DNA of 64,000 bases from Patellaria atrata CBS 101060 (taxonomy: Eukaryota): the NCBI GenBank assembly GCA_010093705.1, contig MU006096.1, positions 518,004 through 582,003 of the forward strand, written 5' to 3'. Made by a program: the position numbers and the translations under genes. The first letter of the stretch is position 1; each line of letters opens with the position of its first letter. This document shows positions 471 through 43,595 of this stretch, in pieces. Below the pieces are notes generated by a model that did no database searches, had not been told where the DNA came from, and saw only the letters and a list, made by a program, of their open reading frames with translations.

Positions 471-557
471 GCCCGCATGGCTTAGTGGTACAGCGTCTCA
501 CTCGTAGAAAGTCATCTCGGTATGAGAAGATCGGCGGTTCGATTCCGCCTGTGGGCA
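471..557 (+). tRNA. tRNA-Thr(CGU) with a 15-nt intron
   Basis: Acceptor stem GCCCGCA/TGTGGGC plus A73; D-arm with TAGTGG; anticodon stem TCTCA/TGAGA; anticodon CGT at 503-505; intron 507-521 at the canonical 37/38 position; T-arm GGCGG-TTCGATT-CCGCC; downstream T-runs fit a Pol III terminator. Confidence 0.95.
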
Positions 558-22670: not shown

Positions 22671-23430
22671 CTACGCGGCTTCCGGGTCCGCGGCCCGCAC
22701 ACTCATTCCCTCGTCGATGTGCGACCGCTGCACAGCCACGTTCTGCGAGTCCTGCTCCCTCAGCAGCACGGCGAGGACCTCGAGCGGCGGGTTCAGGCGC
22801 AGGCGGTGCGCGCGCTTCCAGCGCGTGATGCGCGGGATGCCTATGCAGGGCTGTGGGATCGGATGGGGGCGTTAGCGTTGAGTTCTGGGATGGGAGTGGG
22901 GGTTTGAGGGTTGAGGGACTCGGGAATATTTGGGGTACACATACACCGTATTTCCCCGTGACGTCGAATTCGCGCAGGATCTTTTCATACAACGAGAGCT
23001 CTTTCTGGTGGATGCGCGGGGCTAGCCGCGCCTCTTCTTTCGCGCCCCAGTACTTTTTTATCCGAGCTTCGGAGAGCTTTCGCGCCGCTGTTTCTTCGTC
23101 TGTTGGGGGGGAGAGGGCTTCTTGTGCGCTGCGCTCTTGGATCGCGGTTTCGAGGGTTGTGGGCGCGAGCGTCGGGGATGGTGAGGTCGTTAGGGGTGTC
23201 GGTGTTACTGGGCGGGATAGTTCTGCTTCGGCGCCTTGTGTGACGGGGGAGGGTTTAGAGGATTCGGAGCGGAGGGAGGTTTTAGATGATTTCTTGGACA
23301 GGAGGTCTTTGCCTGCTGCTGTGGAGGAGGGTTTGGTTACCTTTGTCGGTCGGCCGTGGAAGGTTAGGGTTGATTGGATCGTGTTTGGGGTGCTGGTCGT
23401 GCGGCCGGTGGAGCGACGTTTGGGCGGCAT
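22671..23430 (-). CDS. POLD4: DNA polymerase delta subunit 4 (p12/Cdm1), 1 intron
   Basis: PIP-like QSTLTF; spliced ILREFDVTGKYG|PCIGIPRITRWKRAHRLRLNPPLEVLAVL is the p12 signature; ends DPEAA*. Confidence 0.92.
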
Positions 23431-23777: not shown

Positions 23778-25027
23778 ATGAGTCCTACTGATCATTCCCC
23801 CGCACTCTCCAAGCCCGAAGCCGAAGCCCTCCTCCCCCGTTTCAAGCTCGGCAGACTGCTCAATCAAGGTACTCCATTCCCGAATCGCGCGCACCGTAGC
23901 TCACCGAACAGTCTCCAGACCAAGTGGGCCGGCGAATCGTTCTTCAAGGGACCATCGACGATGAGCCCGCACTGCTGCTGGCCGAGCGAGCCGCCTTCCC
24001 CGCCGACGCAACGCATCTAGCCTACTTCGCGAGCGCGCTGGAGAACGTCAAGAATCTGGGCGCCAACGACATCTATTTCTGGTATTTGGCCTCGACCGCG
24101 CACTCGTCTGGAAATAGGAGAGAGGGGGAAGGTGAGGGGGACAAGCTGCAACCACCGGACCTCAAGATCAATCTGATTTACCCTTGTTTGCCGCAGCATG
24201 TTAAGAAATACACGCCGCAGGGGTTGAGGGTCGTGACTGAGACGCCCGAGGTCTATGAGAGGTGGATCAGGCCGTACTATGAGCGGAAGAGGGACAAGGG
24301 GCAGGTTAACTGGGTGTGGAATATTCTGGAGGGTAAGACGGAGCAGGAGGATGTGATGTATAGGGAGAGTGGGGAGGAGGGCTTTGTAGTGTTGCCGGAT
24401 TTGTGAGTTAATCCCGTCATTGATCTGGCCTAGGATTGTGAGTGAAAAGGTATAGGGATGGCGCTAACCGGGGGAATCGTCATAGGAACTGGGATCGCAA
24501 AACGATGGAAACCCTTCATGTCCTCGGCATCGTTGAGAGGAGGGACATTTGGTCCGTCCGGGATCTCAAGAAGAAACATATTGTTTGGTTGAAGCACATG
24601 CGCGATAAGTTCCTCGATGCGGTCGTGAAATTGTATCCTGATATCGAACAGGATCAGCTGAAGCTTTACGTTCACTGTAAGTCTTGTCTATTCGCGGTGC
24701 CTCGAACTTTCCTCATGATCCATATGGTCCACTTCCATTGCTGAACCTTTGATAGACCAACCCACATACTACCACTTCCACGTTCACATAGTCCATGTCG
24801 CGCTTGATGCTGGGGCTACGCAAGCTGTAGGCAAAGCGATCGGCCTCGACAGCATCATCGCCCAAATAGAGACAATGGATCCTGGTAGCAAAGGCGACGA
24901 GGCCGGCATTGCTGATGTGAGTTTGACTTATCATGTTGGCGAACAGACGGAGTTGTGGACGGAGATTTTCAGCGTTTTAAAGGAGAAGAGGGAACCGTAT
25001 GATGGTCAAAATGTGGGAGGGAGTTAG
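23778..25027 (+). CDS. DCS1: m7GpppX scavenger decapping enzyme (DcpS), 3 introns
   Basis: LKINLIYP...HVKKY, VTETPE, WVWNILEGKTE, LPDLNWD, SVRDL, and HIT-type YVHYQPTYYHFHVH after splicing. Confidence 0.95.
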
Positions 25028-25149
25028 AATTTATATTTTGAGACGCTGTGGTATAATCATAGCATCTTATAGAGAATGGAGATATTTACATTTCCGTAAC
25101 TTACAAAACTATTCCTGAAATTTGGGCATAGGTGTCAGTTTCTAGCTCT

Positions 25150-25955
25150 AACCACACGTTTGCTTTCATTTCATTATTAGCTACAATTTGAGGACTGCTT
25201 TGAATGCGGATAACCCAAAGCTAATGCCTTGCTATTTGGTAACCCTATCGAAGTACCTTTACCCAGGCGTATCTACAACTTGATAGATTAATTGGGTGGC
25301 CCATCATCGGAGGGAAAAGTGGCCTGTTCAAGCCGCACTTTTGACCCACGTTGTTCTCTATTTCAAATCGCTTTTGAACCTCAAGCATCATTTTCTAACA
25401 GTAACTCAAACTCACTTTTTGTAAGATTCAAGTACATTGTTCCCATAGGGTCACTCAGGGCTGTCCTTCCGGCGTAGTCCTTGGTCTCTATTCAGCGTTG
25501 TCGTTCCCACTCCGCTTGGTCCTTGGTGTGGTGTCACCGGGCCGGTTGTCAGGGGCAACCGGGGCCTTAGACACCACACTTCTTTAATATACCTTATCCT
25601 CATTCTTCTTCTTTACATATTCTTCTTTTCTTTTTCAATATGCATTTATCCTTTCCCTTGAAATCCAGTTTTCTTGACAGCAAATCTTCTTCCCGAGCTT
25701 CGCCATACACTCAAGCAGTTAAGTACTTCAAGCAATTTTTTCCAAAAGTTCAGGCTTACGACTTGACCCGCGTGGGCTCAACGACTGAGAGTTATGAGCG
25801 CTAGCTACCATACTCTCGCTGTAAATTCCACAAACGTCATCTTTGATTTAGATTTATTATTTAGATTTATGCACCATTGGTCGAAAGACCGGGACCTGGG
25901 TGCCTTGTGCATTGGCCCAGGTGAAGACGGGTGGGTCCGTCTTCCCTTTTTTTTT
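25150..25955 (+). ncRNA. Candidate telomerase RNA (TER); 5' end approximate
   Basis: Template-like TAACCCTA at 25240-25247; enclosing helices 25188-25198/25474-25484 and 25208-25216/25458-25466; pseudoknot candidate 25370-25431; P6-like 25874-25899 and P6.1-like GTGC-CTTGT-GCAT 25900-25912; terminal hairpin 25923-25944; T9 tract directly followed by GTAAGT, then a branch site with no nearby AG. No long ORF. Confidence 0.6.
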
Positions 25956-26784
25956 GTAAGTCTTGACCCCTTTCACACATTGAAGGCCGGCTAACTTTTC
26001 AACACACATGACGCTTCTATGGACGGATGTACTTTGCTTGACAGTTATTGTGGTGGGAACTGGAACTTAGTTAGAGTAGATAGAGAAATCAAAGCTTTGG
26101 ATGAAATAGCGTCTTCTATACTTTCATACAATTCTCTTTTTCGTGATAAAACAACGTTGCTTGGTGTTGAGGTTGGCATGGTTGGGTTGAGGTCTGAACA
26201 GAGTCACGACTAGTTTAGATCTAACCGATATGGTGTGCGATGCTTATTAATAAGGGCAACCTTCTATCTACCTTTCAGGTTATATTCACCTTTCCACCTA
26301 TCCACTTGCAAATGTATGCTTTCGTTCCAATGATAATAAGGAGTTTCCAAGCTCAGTTCAATCAGTACTAATGTTCTGAGTTTCCTTAACATACCACTTC
26401 CTTCCTTACCGCGATTTTCTTAGAACTGGTTCGACCGCCGCTTCCTGTCATCCTTTTCATGAAACAACTATTTTAATAACTTTACAAGCCAGGAGAAAAC
26501 TTTTGAACTAGAACTTTGATGCAGAATCCGATGATTTTGTGTTCTTTAGCAAGCGCTATAACAAGCCCTTTAATATCACCACCGAAACCGATTAATTAAC
26601 CATACTTTATTTGACTTGGCACATGCAAATTCCCGTGAAAGAGCCAGGTATACACAACTTAAGACAACGTAGATCAGATCATTACGTCGTCCTTTAAAAC
26701 TACGCATTCGCCATGGGAGATTTCAATTGCTGTAATAATAGTATTGCAATGGAAACGGCTTTTGATGTAACCTAGGATATAGCC

Positions 26785-28327
26785 ATGATGTTGTTCCCTT
26801 CTTGTCGCATACTCATTTCCCTTCTCACTTTCTTTTTGATACGACAAGCGCATTCGAAACCGACTACTTCAAGTCATTTTGAATGGCTCCAAAGATGCCT
26901 CGCACGCACCCAACTCTCCTTCTCTACAAATAGCACGGGCGTCTGCTCTCGGCCATGTGGTTTGATTCCATTTACAGACTATCTTCCCTGGACCCACCAG
27001 CCCGTGTGCGTCAAAGCACGTAGCGAGGAAGATCAACGGGAACATAGCTTTTGTCTGTATACGAACGCAGACTTTCGAGATGGACGCGGATTTAGCATCA
27101 TCACCACGGCTGATGTTGGCACTTATATTTCTGAACAACCTATCATGTGGGATCGGGAGAGGTGGCGCAAGAAGACTATAACCTTTAAGGACCAGCCGTA
27201 CAAGATGGAGGATATGGCTGAAAGAGGACTCGGACTTCGCGCCAACCAGACTATTACTTACGGTCGGGTCTTCATGGAAAGTTCACCGACAATCGTCGTA
27301 ATTCGGTCCGCCTTGGATTTTATGACGAGGGAGCAGCGCCACTATATGTTCAGGCGTGCAATCAAGCAACTTCCAGTGAAGACGGGAAATATGATTCTCA
27401 AGTTAGCAAAAAGTATGGGAGGTGATGAGCTCGACGATGTGTTCAAGACGAACGGAATTGGACAAATCTACGGGGAAGATATCAGGCATCTTTCAATACT
27501 GCCAGAGGTAGCTGTACGCAATCATCATATTCTTTTGCTTTTATGATGTTCTGAACCATCTACTAATCGGTTGTATCAGCGGATCAATCACGATTGTCGT
27601 CCAAAGTAAGAGTCCCACTCATCCAGTTCTTCTAAATACTTACTGAAAACATGTAGCTCTGCATATCGCTTCGATGACACGACGCTTAAGCACGAAGTCT
27701 TCGCTATCCGTGACATCAAACCCGGCGAAGAAATAACGGTAACTTGTATGATTCCCCATAGATCCATTCGCCTTCCCCCTCTAATTTTGACCAGACGTTC
27801 CTCCCGAAATGCCTTCCGATATGCGCAACTCCTTACTTCGCAACCAATGGAACTTTGATTGCACTTGCTCCCTCTGTGCCGCCCAGGACTTCACCCTCGC
27901 AACCTCTGACACCCGTCTTCGCACAATCCAAGAATACGCCTCGGACCTTGCTTCCGTATCCAATGACCCCGAACTGTTTCTCGAAAAGGTAGAAAGAATT
28001 CTGGAACTATACGAGTTGGAGGATATTATCGCGCCAAAAGCAAGGTATCTGGAGCTCGCGGCATATGCGTGCAGTCAATTGGGCTTGGAGGCGGCGACGA
28101 AGAAATATGCGAAGAAAGCTTATGATATGTGGGATGTCATTGCCGGAAAGGATAGTTGGGAAAAAAAGGGTATGGGGGCGTTGTTGAGGGATCCAAAGGC
28201 GCATCCTAGCTGGAAGTATGGTCAGGGTGAAAAACAAAATGAGAGTGCTTCTGAAGACCCAACCGAGTTAGGGAACGGGAATGCTTCTGAGCTATTTAGT
28301 GAAGTTCTCGAGCCGACAAAGGAGTGA
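26785..28327 (+). CDS. SET-domain (Set5/SMYD-like) protein with N-terminal signal peptide, 3 introns
   Basis: RGLGLRAN (SET-N); spliced EVA|RINHDCRPN|SAYRFD...FAIRDIKPGEEITVT|Y; post-SET WNFDCTCSLC; TPR-like helical tail; hydrophobic leader MMLFPSCRILISLLTFFLIRQAHS. Confidence 0.88.
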
Positions 28328-38873: not shown

Positions 38874-41800
38874 TCATAGAGAGTCTTCGGTATGAGAATC
38901 ACTTACATCTTCGTGGAAAGTCTTCCCCTCCGTCGTGGGTTTAATCATGCCCACCCTGATACAAAAATCGCCAAACCTCTCCCCCTCGTTCCTTTCAATC
39001 GCATACCTCTTCAACAACGGCTTCATGATCTCCAGAATCTCCTCCTCTTTGATACTGCTTCTATACAGTTTGTTCAACCTCTGGCCATGATACCCGCCAC
39101 CAAGATACATATTGTAGGCCCCGTAGGCCTTACCCACGAACGCCACTTCCGCGAGCCACGGCCGCGCGCAACCGTTCGGACACCCGGTCATGCGCATGAC
39201 GATGGACTCCTGTCGAAGTCCATTCTCCTCGATCACACCTTCGAGCTTGGTGATCAGTTCGGGGAGGTAGCGCTCGCTTTCCGCCATTGCGAGACCACAG
39301 GTCGGGAAAGCGACGCAGGCGGAGGAGGAAAGTCTGAGGCCAGAGAAGTTGGTGTTATCCAATTTGTACTTCTTCAGCATATTCTTCATCGCCGCTAGAT
39401 CCTCGTCTGCTATTCCACTGAGTATGAGATGCTGGTTTCCCGTCAGCCTAAACTCGCCCTTATGCACTTTTGCGACCTCGCGCAAGCCGGTCTTCATGGG
39501 GAAATCCGCCGTATCCTCTATTCTCCCGTTCTCGATAAAGAAGGTGAAGTGGTTCTTGCCGTTCTCGTCTTTCTGCCAGCCGAACGTGTCGATGTTGCTG
39601 TCGAACTTGAACGGTTTGGGATCTCGGAACTTTTCGCCCCAGAGGTCTTCGACTTTGCTGCGAAAGACGTCGGGGCCCATGTCGTCCATGGTGTACTTTA
39701 GACGCGCGTGTTTGCGATTCTTTCGGTCGCCATGATCTCTTTGGACGAGCATGATCTTCTCGCAGGCGATGTGGGTCTTGTCGGCAGAAACGTAACCGAG
39801 CATGCTACCGGTCCTGGGATATGTCTTCTTGTTGTTGTGTGTGACTCCCATACCACCACCGGCCAAGACGTTGAAGCCTTCCAATCGGCCATTGGATCCC
39901 TTGATCGCGATGAGACCGATATCATGGGCATAAACATCCGTATCGTTGTGTGGCGGAATAGCAATAGTGATCTTGAACTTCCTAGGAAGATACGTCGGTC
40001 CATAGAGCGGTTCGTGATCGACAACTGCATCTCCTGCGATCTGAGTCTTCCCGTCGTCCTCCTTGAGCCAGATCTCATGATATGCCGTTGTCGACGGCAG
40101 AAGATGATCACTGATCTTTTTCGAGACGGCGTGAACATCCGCGTGATATTGCGAATGTTGCGGCAAGCTGCTGCACATAACATTACGGTTAACATCACCG
40201 CATGCTGCGATCGTGGTCATCAAGGCCCTATTGATAGCTTGCATTGCAGGTCGTAGTTTGCCCTTCACCACACCGTGGAACTGGAAGGTCTGTCTCGTCG
40301 TCAATTTCATGGTCTCATTTCCCAATTTCGTACTGATTTCGTCCATTTGTATCCATTGTTTCGGAGTAGCAACACCACCTGGTAATCGGCACCGTATCAT
40401 AAAGGAATACGCAGGTTCTAGCCCCTGAGCTTTGCGTTCATCCCTAAGATCACGGTCATCTTGCATGTAAGTACCATGGAACTTGGTAAGTTGCTGATCG
40501 CTTGCAGAGATTGCTCCAGTCGATGTATCTTGCAAACCTTCCTCGATAGTACCACGGAGGTAGTTCGAAGCCAGCTTAATATCCTCATTAGTAATTGGTG
40601 GAGGTTCCTCAGGGAGACCTTCCACATTTGCAACACCTAAAGCCTGCCACAACTTCGGTTCCCACTCTGAATAGCCGGTTTGGTATGCATCGGGGTCCTG
40701 ATCGTCACCGAGGCCGCACTCAGTCAGCGCCTTCCCGCCTAAAGCAAGTAACCGAGTGTGTAGATCCTTTCCAGGTTTATTATAATAGATCTTGTCTTCC
40801 TTTCTGGGCCAGTAATGACTATCACCTAGGGAGAACACGGCGAAGTTGACAGTTGCAAGATCGATATCCGTAGAGTTCCTTACAGCTTCCCAGAATGAAC
40901 GACCATTCTGCGGGAACTCACCTTGACCTGCAGTACTGGTAATCAGGGCAATGTTTTCCTCTGTATTGAGATCCTCTAAGGGATAGTCATCCATTGCCAT
41001 GACTATGGTCTTCAGGCCTCGGGCTTTGCCTCTATTACCCAACCTCTTCGCGAGATTCTCCGCATTTCCGTTGTCAGACGCAAATAGGATTGTCAATGGT
41101 GCACCCTGTAGTCCCTCGAGCAATTTGCCGTACGCATCCTTCGCTTTGCGTTTCTGGAGTTGTCTAACTTCCGAACCGTAAGAGCCAGATAGGTTGGCAG
41201 AAAACTCGGGGTTCCTCTTCATCACCTGCGACAGGTAGTTGTCTCGCCTTAAGAAATCCTGGAGTTCCTTCTTAATGCGCTCGGAATCAAGGTAGAAATT
41301 CTCTTCACCCTGTTCCTCTCGTCGCGGATTCCATCTATACAAAGGCCAGTAGCCCAAATCAACAGCTTTCTTAGTCTCTTGAAGGACGGTTAGCGGAGAG
41401 TCAGCTTCCTGATTGTAAGGCAAGTATGCGAGAACAACAGAGGGCCCATCGAACTTCTCAGCTTCTATCAAAGCCTGTAGAACTTGGGTATATGAACTGT
41501 AAACCGCTACGGATGCGACATATGCATTTCCAAAGTTCATCGCATATAATCCAATATCTTTCTTTCTACGAGATGCGTCGGCAGCTGCTCTTTCAGAATA
41601 GGGTTGCGAGTCAATGATAAGCATGTTGACATTCTCTCCTGAGGCAAGCACATGATGGACACCGGAGTTTCCTAAGTCGTAAGCCCATGCGTCCGAGCCG
41701 ATAAGCCATTGAGCCTCCTTGAAGAATAAGCCTTTCCTGGAGAGCATGTCTGTCGCAACGCGTGATCCATCTGTACTTAAACGTGTAATAACTTCGGGAG

Positions 41801-43595
41801 CAAGATCATTGGCTTTCTCAGCATCTTCAGCAGCTAGAGCCCATTTCGAAAGCCATTGCCGGGGTACGTCTGTGGTGAATTCTGCTGACTTTGCCGTTTT
41901 CTGGGCCTCTTCAACGAAGCGCTTTCTATGGGATGATCTTGCAAGTAGGGAGCCAAAACCGAACTCGGGATTGGACGATATCTCAGAGGAAATACCAGCG
42001 TTGTTGGCACCCAGGCGATTGGCAATGTACAAACGTTGACCAAATACCTGATCCAGGATCTTAAGGTACGCATTCTCCAAGCTTGGTTGCTTGAGCTTCG
42101 TCTCCTCATCCGAAAGTTCAGGGCCTTCAGCCTTTCCAATTTGCAGATTTTGGATAGGGGCGTCAGACAAAAGATTCTGAAAGATTCCTCTGAGCGCTTG
42201 TCGAACGGTCGACTTTTCGATGTATCCAAGTTGGTGGCCAACAATGATGGGCCCAGCGCCACCTCCAGCCTTTAGTGACATAAGAATGTCCAGTAACAGT
42301 GGGCCCCATTTCGTCGTTTTACGCTTAACCTGCTCGAGAACAGCTAGTCGTTGGACAGTTTTTGGAAGGATTACTGAGATCTTAGCTCCTAACCATGGAC
42401 GGTATAATCGAGCAGTGAGTAGTCCGGCATTTGCATACTGTTCTAACGGACTTGCTTCATCCATTTCTTGGCCGAACATGGCGGTGTCGGCACCGAAGAC
42501 AAACAGAGCAGCATCCGCGTCTGTCGGACCTGAATATTCAAACGCGCCATAACTGCGACCCGTGCTCTCTTTGACCGTGGTCCAGATTTGGGTAGCAAAG
42601 TTATAGATGTCTTCGGATGAGATTGGTCTTGGCGCAACGGATTCGACTGTTGTTGCTGAAGACTCTGAAGGATGGCTTCCAACGCTGCTATCTCGTCGTG
42701 AAGATCCACTTGCTGATCCTACTGTGCTTACCCCAGCTGACTTGTCTCCAACTGGACTCACGCGCCCTGACGGTTCCCCCTTAACAAGAACAGCTTGACT
42801 TCTCGGAACTCCAACTGATGCGACTCTTCCATCTTCCGCATAGATACCAGTCTCTGTTGACTTTCCCCTCTGGAAAGATCTCACAGCATTAAGGTCCAGG
42901 ACACTCTTCACCAGCTCCCGACTTTCAAACGAAATCGGGCCATCTTGCTTGACGCTAGCTGAACCAAAGAAGTGTATCACACCCTTCCCTGATTTAATAG
43001 CTAGTGCATGTGCGGTAAGAGCTATGTCCTGTACCTCCTGAAGTGACTCCGACTGAAGGAAGGTGAATCCTGATTGTCGTATTGAGGTAATGTCGGAGTA
43101 GTCCGGATATCCTGATGGGTGTAGAGATACATGAAGTACAACTGGGTACTGTGCGAGCTTGTAGAGGTGGGGGATTGAACGGAGTAGAATGGAAGAGCTG
43201 GTGGTTACGGAAACGAGCTTCCCTGATCTTACCGGTCCATAGACGGAAAGGAGAGGATCGGCATTATGCCTAACGGGTAAGACCTGTGCCGCTTTCAGTA
43301 AGAACTAGTTGACATGCATTTTGGTAAGTCTATACCTCAGGGATGCCATTTGCGACAACTCCTGGTGCTTTATTCGAAGCATACTTCTTGAGAAAACCTG
43401 AAAACTCGGAATCGCTAGCGAGTGAAGGCTGAACTGAAACAATTACATCACTACAGATATATGCGATTCGTGCAGCTATGAGGATTAGTTCTTGTAATAT
43501 TGTAACATAGAAAGGTAGGGCGAAAACATATAAAGACGTCTTGAGGGGGAGTATAGGTGCTTACCTGCTTCTCCAGCAGTCGAGATGGAGCCCAT
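38874..43595 (-). CDS. MET5: Assimilatory sulfite reductase beta (siroheme) subunit, 2 introns
   Basis: Spliced start MGSISTAGEA|AARIAY; PFOR-like region (WLIGSDAWAYDLG); flavodoxin (LFASDNGNAE, STAGQGEFP, LGDS); NIR/SIR domain (KFHGTYMQDDRD, LTTRQTFQFH, ACGDVNRN, LPRKFK, CVAFPTCGLA, MTGCPNGCAR). Confidence 0.97.

Follow-up and report, generated by a model that had tools for sequence, protein, structure and literature searches.

The plus-strand stretch from about 25.1 kb to position 25955 of a window of the Patellaria atrata CBS 101060 genome (contig MU006096.1) is likely to be the telomerase RNA (TER) gene of this wood-decay fungus, a dothideomycete; the window is the whole 64,000-nucleotide (nt) piece of DNA analysed here, and all positions refer to it. 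The candidate is set in a 1.75-kb intergenic gap between two plus-strand genes, with that of the scavenger decapping enzyme DcpS upstream and a SET-domain gene downstream. An original prediction had named this stretch the species' TER, and a compact one. This is supported because the stretch contains an exact match to the P6.1 block of published TERs and an Aspergillus-type 3′-end module, which lie in order downstream of a template; most of the structural arguments that accompanied the prediction, by contrast, proved to be at chance level. Template, P6.1 and 3′ end follow one another on a single strand in the canonical order, with P6.1 and the 3′ module 505-708 nt downstream of the template string TAACCCTA. 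The elements are direct observations, as are the order in which they stand, how rare they are and how they match the published Aspergillus TERs. Membership of the Pezizomycotina TER family would be based on the P6.1 block, the template and the 3′ module; the RNA would be an unusual member in being small, in having a GU intron and in lacking a P6 helix.

The comparison set was a published alignment of ten Aspergillus/Neosartorya TERs in which the elements are labelled (Kuprys 2013 supplement, PMC3603654). Chance levels were obtained from shuffled sequences and from Markov simulations of the 64-kb window (n = 300).

The P6.1 block

The P6.1 block, AAAGUUCAGGCUU, is located at 25745..25757 on the plus strand (AAAGTTCAGGCTT as DNA) and agrees with the Aspergillus/Neosartorya pattern AAAGYTYAGGCTT at 13 of 13 positions. 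In the published alignment this pattern fits nine of the ten TERs, A. terreus having a C at position 6, and in nine of ten it is embedded in a three-way-junction block of the form ...GGAUC AAAG[C/U]U[C/U]AGGCUU GUCU... (PMC3603654). The match is unique in the 64 kb, on both strands and even with one mismatch allowed, while the Markov simulations give an expectation of 0.02 per window. The block offers a conserved-sequence P6.1 stem-loop with a stem of 4 base pairs (bp), AAGU/GCUU (A-U, A-U, G-C and U.G), and the loop UCAG with the conserved U and G; the same U.G pair is seen in the P6.1 of A. niger. P6.1 is preceded by A residues (25744-45). P6.1 has been described as essential and as conserved across the Pezizomycotina (Qi 2013, PMC3592445).

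The 3′-end module

The second rare element consists of a hairpin, CC, U9, GUAAGU, an interval of 28 nt and GCUAACU. Its terminal hairpin, GAAGACGG-GUGGGU-CCGUCUUC (25923..25944, plus strand; 22 nt, pair probability 1.0), comes directly after GGUGAA and is followed by CC and U9 (25945..25955, with U9 at 25947-55; unpaired probability 0.88). We take the latter as fitting the Aspergillus motif C3-5 U7-12 (Kuprys 2013, PMC3603654); it would be a Sm/Lsm-type site, and its end the predicted mature 3′ end. The 5′ splice site GUAAGU (25956..25961) abuts the U tract, where the Aspergilli have AUAAGU, and the branch site GCUAACU (25990..25996, branch A at 25994) lies 28 nt past it, compared with 27 nt in A. 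fumigatus. The ends of all ten aligned Aspergillus/Neosartorya TERs read GUGAAC, then a hairpin some 24 nt long, CCC, U6-10, (C)U-AUAAGU, about 27 nt and GCUAACU (PMC3603654); the sequence before the hairpin is thus GUGAAC there and GGUGAA here, and the hairpin has the same position and size in all ten. A run of at least seven T followed by RTAAGT occurs only here in the 64 kb, both strands considered (0.04 expected), and the combination of U-run, 5′ splice site and branch site appeared in none of the 300 simulated windows. The U tract and splice signals at the 3′ end were also part of the original prediction, and they are the one item in it that stands clearly above chance.

The first AG past the branch point (26043..26044, plus strand) is 48 nt away, an unusual distance that probably makes it a poor 3′ splice site. 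Among 18 intron-like sites in the window, 13 have a branch-to-AG gap of 1-16 nt (median of all 18, 13.5), and most of the other long-gap sites are not genuine introns. The Schizosaccharomyces pombe type of arrangement combines a canonical 5′ splice site with a long branch-to-AG gap, as is seen here. The known filamentous-fungal TERs are all described in PMC4993307 as processed by spliceosomal cleavage.

Two short repeats touch this region. The 7-mer TTGACCC is found three times within 630 nt on the plus strand, at 25341-47 (after a U4 run), 25763-69 (after P6.1) and 25963-69 (after the 5′ splice site), and TTTTTGTAAG is found twice, at 25416-25 and 25951-60 (plus strand).

The stretch could instead be some other non-coding transcript, or an upstream exon in the 5′ untranslated region (UTR) of the SET gene followed by an ordinary intron, 25956-26044, the P6.1-like 13-mer and TAACCCTA then being coincidental; we regard this as very improbable. 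GTAAGT and GCTAAC are indeed normal intron signals of this genome, position 1 carries the canonical G, an AG is available at 26043-44 and no Rfam telomerase family matches. The candidate stretch also contains a CT-rich tract at 25585-25700, and such a tract resembles the pyrimidine boxes near fungal transcription starts. However, the SET-gene start codon is about 740 nt past the AG, and the 48-nt gap would be atypical for an intron that is spliced in the ordinary way. Moreover, a hairpin, C-run and U9 right before a 5′ splice site are found nowhere else in the window and match TER 3′ ends base by base, and the chance of any one block as rare as the 13-mer in 850 nt of one strand is about 5e-5 by our own arithmetic.

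The template and the 5′ region

The putative template, 5′-UAACCCUA-3′ (25240..25247, plus strand), comprises one TTAGGG repeat and a 2-nt alignment region; it is complementary to more than one telomeric repeat and has the repeated alignment end of a TER template. Its DNA string is present in a single copy in the window and is the only telomeric 8-mer on the plus strand. In the ensemble fold, template positions are unpaired with a mean probability of 0.47. A longer telomere-like string of 10 nt, AACCCTAACC, is located at 23362-23371, but on the opposite (minus) strand and in coding sequence, inside the frame of DNA polymerase delta subunit 4.

Upstream of the template, TATA-like AT-rich elements are present at 25030..25057 on the plus strand (TTTATATTTT, 25030-39; TATAAT, 25052-57). 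They sit 3-30 nt past the DcpS stop codon, in the region that must hold the poly(A) signals of DcpS as well, and could be the promoter of the RNA, the DcpS poly(A) region, or both. The E-box and ACGCGT elements found upstream of Aspergillus TERs are absent upstream of the candidate.

It is conceivable, if rather unlikely, that the TER is cut from a DcpS read-through transcript or a long DcpS 3′ UTR, or that it starts in the last DcpS exon, which would make the RNA or its precursor longer. DcpS shares the strand of the candidate, with a mere 213 nt between its stop codon and the template, and the sole promoter-like elements overlap the expected DcpS poly(A) signals. The aligned Aspergillus RNAs have the end of the template at positions 372-437 of an alignment whose start includes promoter sequence; with a comparable leader, the candidate could extend into DcpS. 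An mRNA-derived fungal TER is known from Ustilago maydis (PMC9564094). Yet the same source describes the ascomycete TERs reported so far as having their own RNA polymerase II promoters and trimethylguanosine caps, and the 3′ end of the candidate follows the ascomycete spliceosomal route, not that of Ustilago; a separate TER transcript is the reading that we prefer.

Weighing the assignment

A number of observations weigh against a TER and are brought together here. The most troubling gap is the absent P6. In constrained folds a CR4/5-like domain is proposed at 25696..25780 (plus strand), with an outer P5-like helix, GAGCUUCGC/GCG-U-GGGCUC (25696-704/25770-80), and an inner helix, GUUAAGU/ACUUGAC (25718-24/25761-67; probability 0.72). 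N. crassa and Aspergillus have a P6 hairpin 5′ of P6.1, and in Pezizomycotina TERs a junction adenosine separates the two. In the place expected for P6 here, between the inner helix and P6.1, there are 21 U-rich, unstructured nucleotides (25725-45), and no hairpin 5′ of P6.1 folds within 25690-25745 (z-score +0.57). The original prediction had listed P6/P6.1-like hairpins without locating them; the P6.1-type block is there, but the P6 hairpin is not. P6 and its junction are described as the part bound by TERT in vertebrates and N. crassa (PMC4993307; Qi 2013, PMC3592445). As to P6.1 itself, its local stem has a probability of 0.001, with thermodynamic folding preferring other partners, and its loop has 4 nt, as also read in Aspergillus, whereas that of N. 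crassa has 5 (NUNGN).

Two features of the sequence around P6.1 are recorded separately. The hairpin GACCC-GCGU-GGG-C-UC at 25765-79 (plus strand) carries the Aspergillus P6 signature, GACCYC...GRGG-A-UC, including the single bulge. Its place is 3′ of P6.1, the wrong order with respect to Aspergillus, and 25696-704 offers an alternative partner for its 3′ strand. A 25-nt direct repeat with 76% identity connects 25378-25402 with 25725-25749 (plus strand), the second copy spanning the space of the missing P6 and the start of P6.1.

The identity of the first intron nucleotide also counts against a TER. Position 1 is a G, as the sequence itself shows. When the A in this place of an A. niger intron was changed to G, processing of the TER in a fission-yeast host was impaired and telomerase function was reduced (Kannan 2015, PMC4299874).

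Several elements do not exceed chance when taken one by one. For the template match, which the original prediction placed correctly and which has no second copy, 1.57 occurrences are expected per window and 82 of 100 shuffles hold at least one, so that alone it is at chance level. A hairpin that may serve as template boundary, CCAAAGC...GCUAUUUGG (25214..25239, plus strand), was found by eye and abuts the template; its local fold has a z-score of +0.21 and is equalled or bettered by 114 of 200 shuffles, so that it too is at chance level.

The helices proposed to enclose the core fare no better. The 11-pair helix of the original prediction exists (5′ strand 25188..25198, plus strand; partner 25474-84) and contains seven Watson-Crick and four G-U pairs, but its ensemble probability is at most 0.008 and its length is that expected by chance: 25100-25950 contains five helices of at least 11 bp with G-U pairs allowed, against a shuffle mean of 4.3, and 13 of 40 shuffles have at least five. 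Strand 25188-97 also has an alternative partner at 25517-26. The second predicted helix (25208-16/25458-66) has an A.C mismatch, leaving eight of nine pairs. The enclosing helices were therefore rejected as evidence, being no more numerous than in shuffled sequence. Neither the boundary hairpin, nor helix 25188-98/25474-84, nor a further helix at 25100-07/25418-25 is above chance. This last one, CUUACAAA/UUUGUAAG (plus strand), is a perfect long-range helix of 8 bp that encloses the template region, and its ensemble probability of 0.76 is above that of 25188-98/25474-84. On the plus strand, the string GTCCTTGGT is present at 25472-85 and again at 25514-27, 42 nt apart, which gives 25188-97 two possible partners.

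Of the pseudoknot in the original prediction, GCTT/AAGC is in place at 25370-73/25383-86, but the loop pairing TTGAACCT/AGATTCAA has a C.A mismatch (seven of eight pairs) and lacks the potential for U-A.U triples, and the candidate was discarded on these two grounds. We searched 25248-25745 for the canonical TER layout, in which the loop is U-rich, the second helix is made of U/A pairs and the two helices abut. The sole match is at 25616..25663 (plus strand): S1 CAUA/UAUG (25616-19/25639-42), a U-rich loop (25620-32) and S2 UUUCAA/UUGAAA (25633-38/25658-63), with S2a abutting S1b. It is offered as a proposal; it lies inside a long pyrimidine tract and is not above chance, shuffles averaging 7.07 such matches. 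The Aspergillus pseudoknot blocks CS3 and CS4 find no match within three mismatches, and a CS4-like reading of GGAGGGAAAAGUGG at 25310-23 was dropped for want of an upstream U-rich partner. Similarly, none of the five other conserved central Aspergillus blocks matches within two edits.

As a whole, the candidate region folds well (z-score -1.70; none of 20 shuffles as good), in contrast to the neighbouring intergenic sequence 26050-26780 (z-score +0.89). The minus strand of the region, however, folds as well as the plus strand (z-score -2.30), and folding therefore gives no indication of the strand. A minus-strand gene was considered and set aside because no signals were found there, although the fold scores are compatible with either strand.

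Rfam contains an Ascomycota TER model. Among the Rfam 15 telomerase families, none matched at the gathering score, nor at E ≤ 5 on the whole window, and none matched at E ≤ 10 on 24900-26900 or 25650-26000; the scan covered all 4227 families. This covariance-model check had been suggested with the original prediction, and its outcome was negative. Comparison with other fungi gave a similar result. In nine metagenome loci with a DcpS gene (50-53% identity, distant fungi), TAACCCTA, the P6.1 block and the 3′ module are all absent. These loci share only the DcpS gene with the window, their neighbouring genes differ, and they are too distant to be used in a covariation test. Among the papers listed on telomerase RNA in Dothideomycetes and on Patellaria atrata, there was no description of this RNA.

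Pressed to the limit, these points would leave no functional RNA at all, merely a DcpS 3′ UTR followed by promoter DNA with motif matches arising by chance. Most single structural features are indeed at chance level, and conservation is not demonstrated among the nine DcpS loci. What makes this explanation extremely unlikely is the conjunction of two independent rare matches, in the right order and on the right strand within 210 nt, one of them expected 0.02 times per window and the other seen in none of 300 simulations. The stretch also folds more stably than the adjacent intergenic DNA, and a gap of 1.75 kb is long for a window so dense in genes.

Size and further structural elements

The candidate is small, apparently less than half as long as the TERs of related moulds. 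From the template to the 3′ end it measures 708 nt, against about 1720-1750 nt counted on the Aspergillus alignment. The U-run ends 198 nt from P6.1; the corresponding distance in A. fumigatus, counted likewise, is about 266 nt. The space from the stop of DcpS (25027) to the U tract (25955) allows for at most 928 nt. The large size of filamentous-fungal TERs, measured as 2035, 2049 and 2425 nt in PMC3603654 and PMC3592445, is not found here. A TER of less than 1 kb is feasible in principle, because the minimal core of the N. crassa RNA is reported as 295 + 39 nt (Qi 2013, PMC3592445).

Three further structured regions are predicted on the plus strand. A very stable, GC-rich hairpin arm at 25525..25580 has an 11-bp outer and a 7-bp inner stem (z-score -3.78; pair probabilities 0.97-0.99), and none of 200 shuffles folds as well. 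Downstream of P6.1, AACGACUGAGAG is followed by the hairpin GAGAGU...ACUCUC (25780..25817; probability 0.93), as in Aspergillus, where the block AACGAAGAGA and a local hairpin likewise lie downstream of P6.1; AACGACUGAGAG is two edits away from AACGAAGAGA, and with 31% of shuffles matching as well the likeness is weak. Finally, folding gives two GC-rich hairpins at 25879..25922, GGUC-GAAA-GACC (25879-90) and CCUGGG...CCCAGG (25894-25922), ahead of the terminal hairpin.

Genomic setting

Both flanking genes named in the original prediction are confirmed by domain matches. The upstream gene contains the DcpS N-terminal domain (E = 9e-26) and, in its last exon, the HIT motif, and ends with the stop codon at 25025-27. 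In the downstream gene, a SET domain is recognized in the exon 27610-27858 (E = 1.2e-4; 22.9 bits, cut-off 22.4). The gap between them was also correctly described as free of open reading frames, and every sequence string quoted in the prediction is found at the position given for it. The longest stop-to-stop frame overlapping the candidate stretch or the gap is 77 amino acids, and none of the eight small frames of the gap matches Pfam at E ≤ 0.1; on both counts a protein-coding reading was rejected.

Some features of the wider window and of the related sequences may be added. In the metagenome loci L002-L008 the DcpS genes are uninterrupted where the gene in the window has two introns (24407-24486 and 24676-24757). 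A sulfite reductase frame of 1476 amino acids (38874-43304, minus strand) is 100% identical to a P. atrata CBS 101060 protein and has as its best match outside P. atrata a sequence of only 82% identity, from Glonium stellatum, which indicates that no close relative has been sequenced. Two sequencing runs, from one sample of one study, contain the stretch; their contigs are unbroken across introns and intergenic DNA, and both runs are therefore DNA. The sole Rfam family at the gathering score in the window is a tRNA gene at 471-557 (plus strand, 57 bits). A run of N from 34910 to about 35900 marks an assembly gap and gives rise to spurious frames of 340-410 amino acids in all six frames.

Proposed mechanism and implications

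From the elements described above we infer how the RNA would be transcribed, where it would end, how it would fold and bind TERT, and how it would be cleaved. RNA polymerase II would begin the transcript shortly past the DcpS stop codon. The template UAACCCUA would be copied by TERT into TTAGGG repeats, and the stem-loop of P6.1, as part of a CR4/5-type domain, would activate TERT. The 3′ domain would end in the terminal hairpin and the U9 tract. The spliceosome would create the mature 3′ end by carrying out the first step of splicing only, cutting between 25955 and 25956 with the help of the branch site GCUAACU; the released 5′ exon would be the mature RNA, its U-rich end being bound by Sm/Lsm proteins.

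In Aspergillus, the second step is blocked by the A at intron position 1 (Kannan 2015, PMC4299874). Since the intron here starts with G and not, as in Aspergillus and Neurospora, with A, the second step would need another block, and it would most likely be held back by the 48-nt gap between branch point and AG, as in fission yeast TER1. Such an uncoupling is suggested because in S. pombe TER1 a long distance between the branch point and the 3′ splice site is reported as critical for the stop after step one (Kannan 2015, PMC4299874). The gap in P. atrata fits an intron whose splicing is not supposed to run to completion.

It is possible, if not quite probable, that the P. atrata TER, at less than 1 kb, is the shortest reported in filamentous ascomycetes. 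It would have kept its template and P6.1 along with a 3′ module of the spliceosomal type, whereas the canonical P6 hairpin and the long arms that separate template from CR4/5 would have been lost. The AU-intron block would have given way to a GU intron whose 3′ splice site is far off, which would halt splicing at the first step much as in fission yeast; the RNA would perhaps share the transcription unit of DcpS.

TERs evolve fast and are consequently missing from most fungal annotations, and the curated model failed in the present case. The search key that worked here, unlike Infernal with Rfam, was the P6.1 block together with the series hairpin, U-run, 5′ splice site and branch site. If the assignment is correct, the parts of the roughly 2-kb TERs of filamentous ascomycetes that are dispensable can be told from a natural RNA of about 0.8-0.9 kb. 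The GU intron would then mean that, within one subphylum, spliceosomal processing limited to the first step has been re-established by other means, and the apparent absence of P6 would raise the question of how TERT holds the CR4/5 domain.

Comparison with known telomerase RNAs

The closest resemblance is to the TERs of Aspergillus and Neosartorya, of which that of A. oryzae measures 2035 nt by rapid amplification of cDNA ends (Kuprys 2013, PMC3603654). Shared with these are the TTAGGG-type template, the P6.1 block AAAG[C/U]U[C/U]AGGCUU, the AACGA..GAGA block with its hairpin (a weak likeness), and the 3′ module. The intron starts with A in the Aspergilli and with G here, and their P6 hairpin, GACCYC...GRGGAUC, lies 5′ of P6.1, whereas GACCC-GCGU-GGGCUC lies 3′ of P6.1 in P. 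atrata. CS3 and CS4, the five central blocks and the E-box and ACGCGT elements of Aspergillus are unmatched, and the neighbouring genes differ.

The TER of N. crassa is 2049 nt long according to Qi 2013 (PMC3592445), with the template UAACCCUAA. The 5′ boundary of the template (UAACCC...) is the same in the two RNAs; the template has 9 nt in N. crassa and 8 here, and the alignment region 3 and 2 nt, respectively. The candidate would be expected to require P6/P6.1 as well as a template-pseudoknot domain, as the N. crassa RNA does. Compared by description, the PK1, PK2, PK2.1 and P6 helices of N. crassa are without identified counterparts in the candidate.

In Ustilago maydis, a TER of 1291 nt derives from the 3′ UTR of the Emi1 mRNA, has a 5′ monophosphate and is formed by cleavages within that UTR, as described in PMC9564094. 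The candidate resembles it in lying directly downstream of a protein-coding gene in the same orientation; 3′ UTR cleavage in that fungus contrasts with a spliceosomal 3′ module here.

S. pombe TER1, whose 3′ end is formed by spliceosomal cleavage (Box 2008; Kannan 2015, PMC4299874), belongs to another lineage, the Taphrinomycotina, and shows no sequence similarity to the candidate. What the two have in common is the layout of the 3′ end: a canonical GU 5′ splice site abutting a U-rich Sm site, a strong branch site, and a long distance from the branch site to the 3′ splice site.

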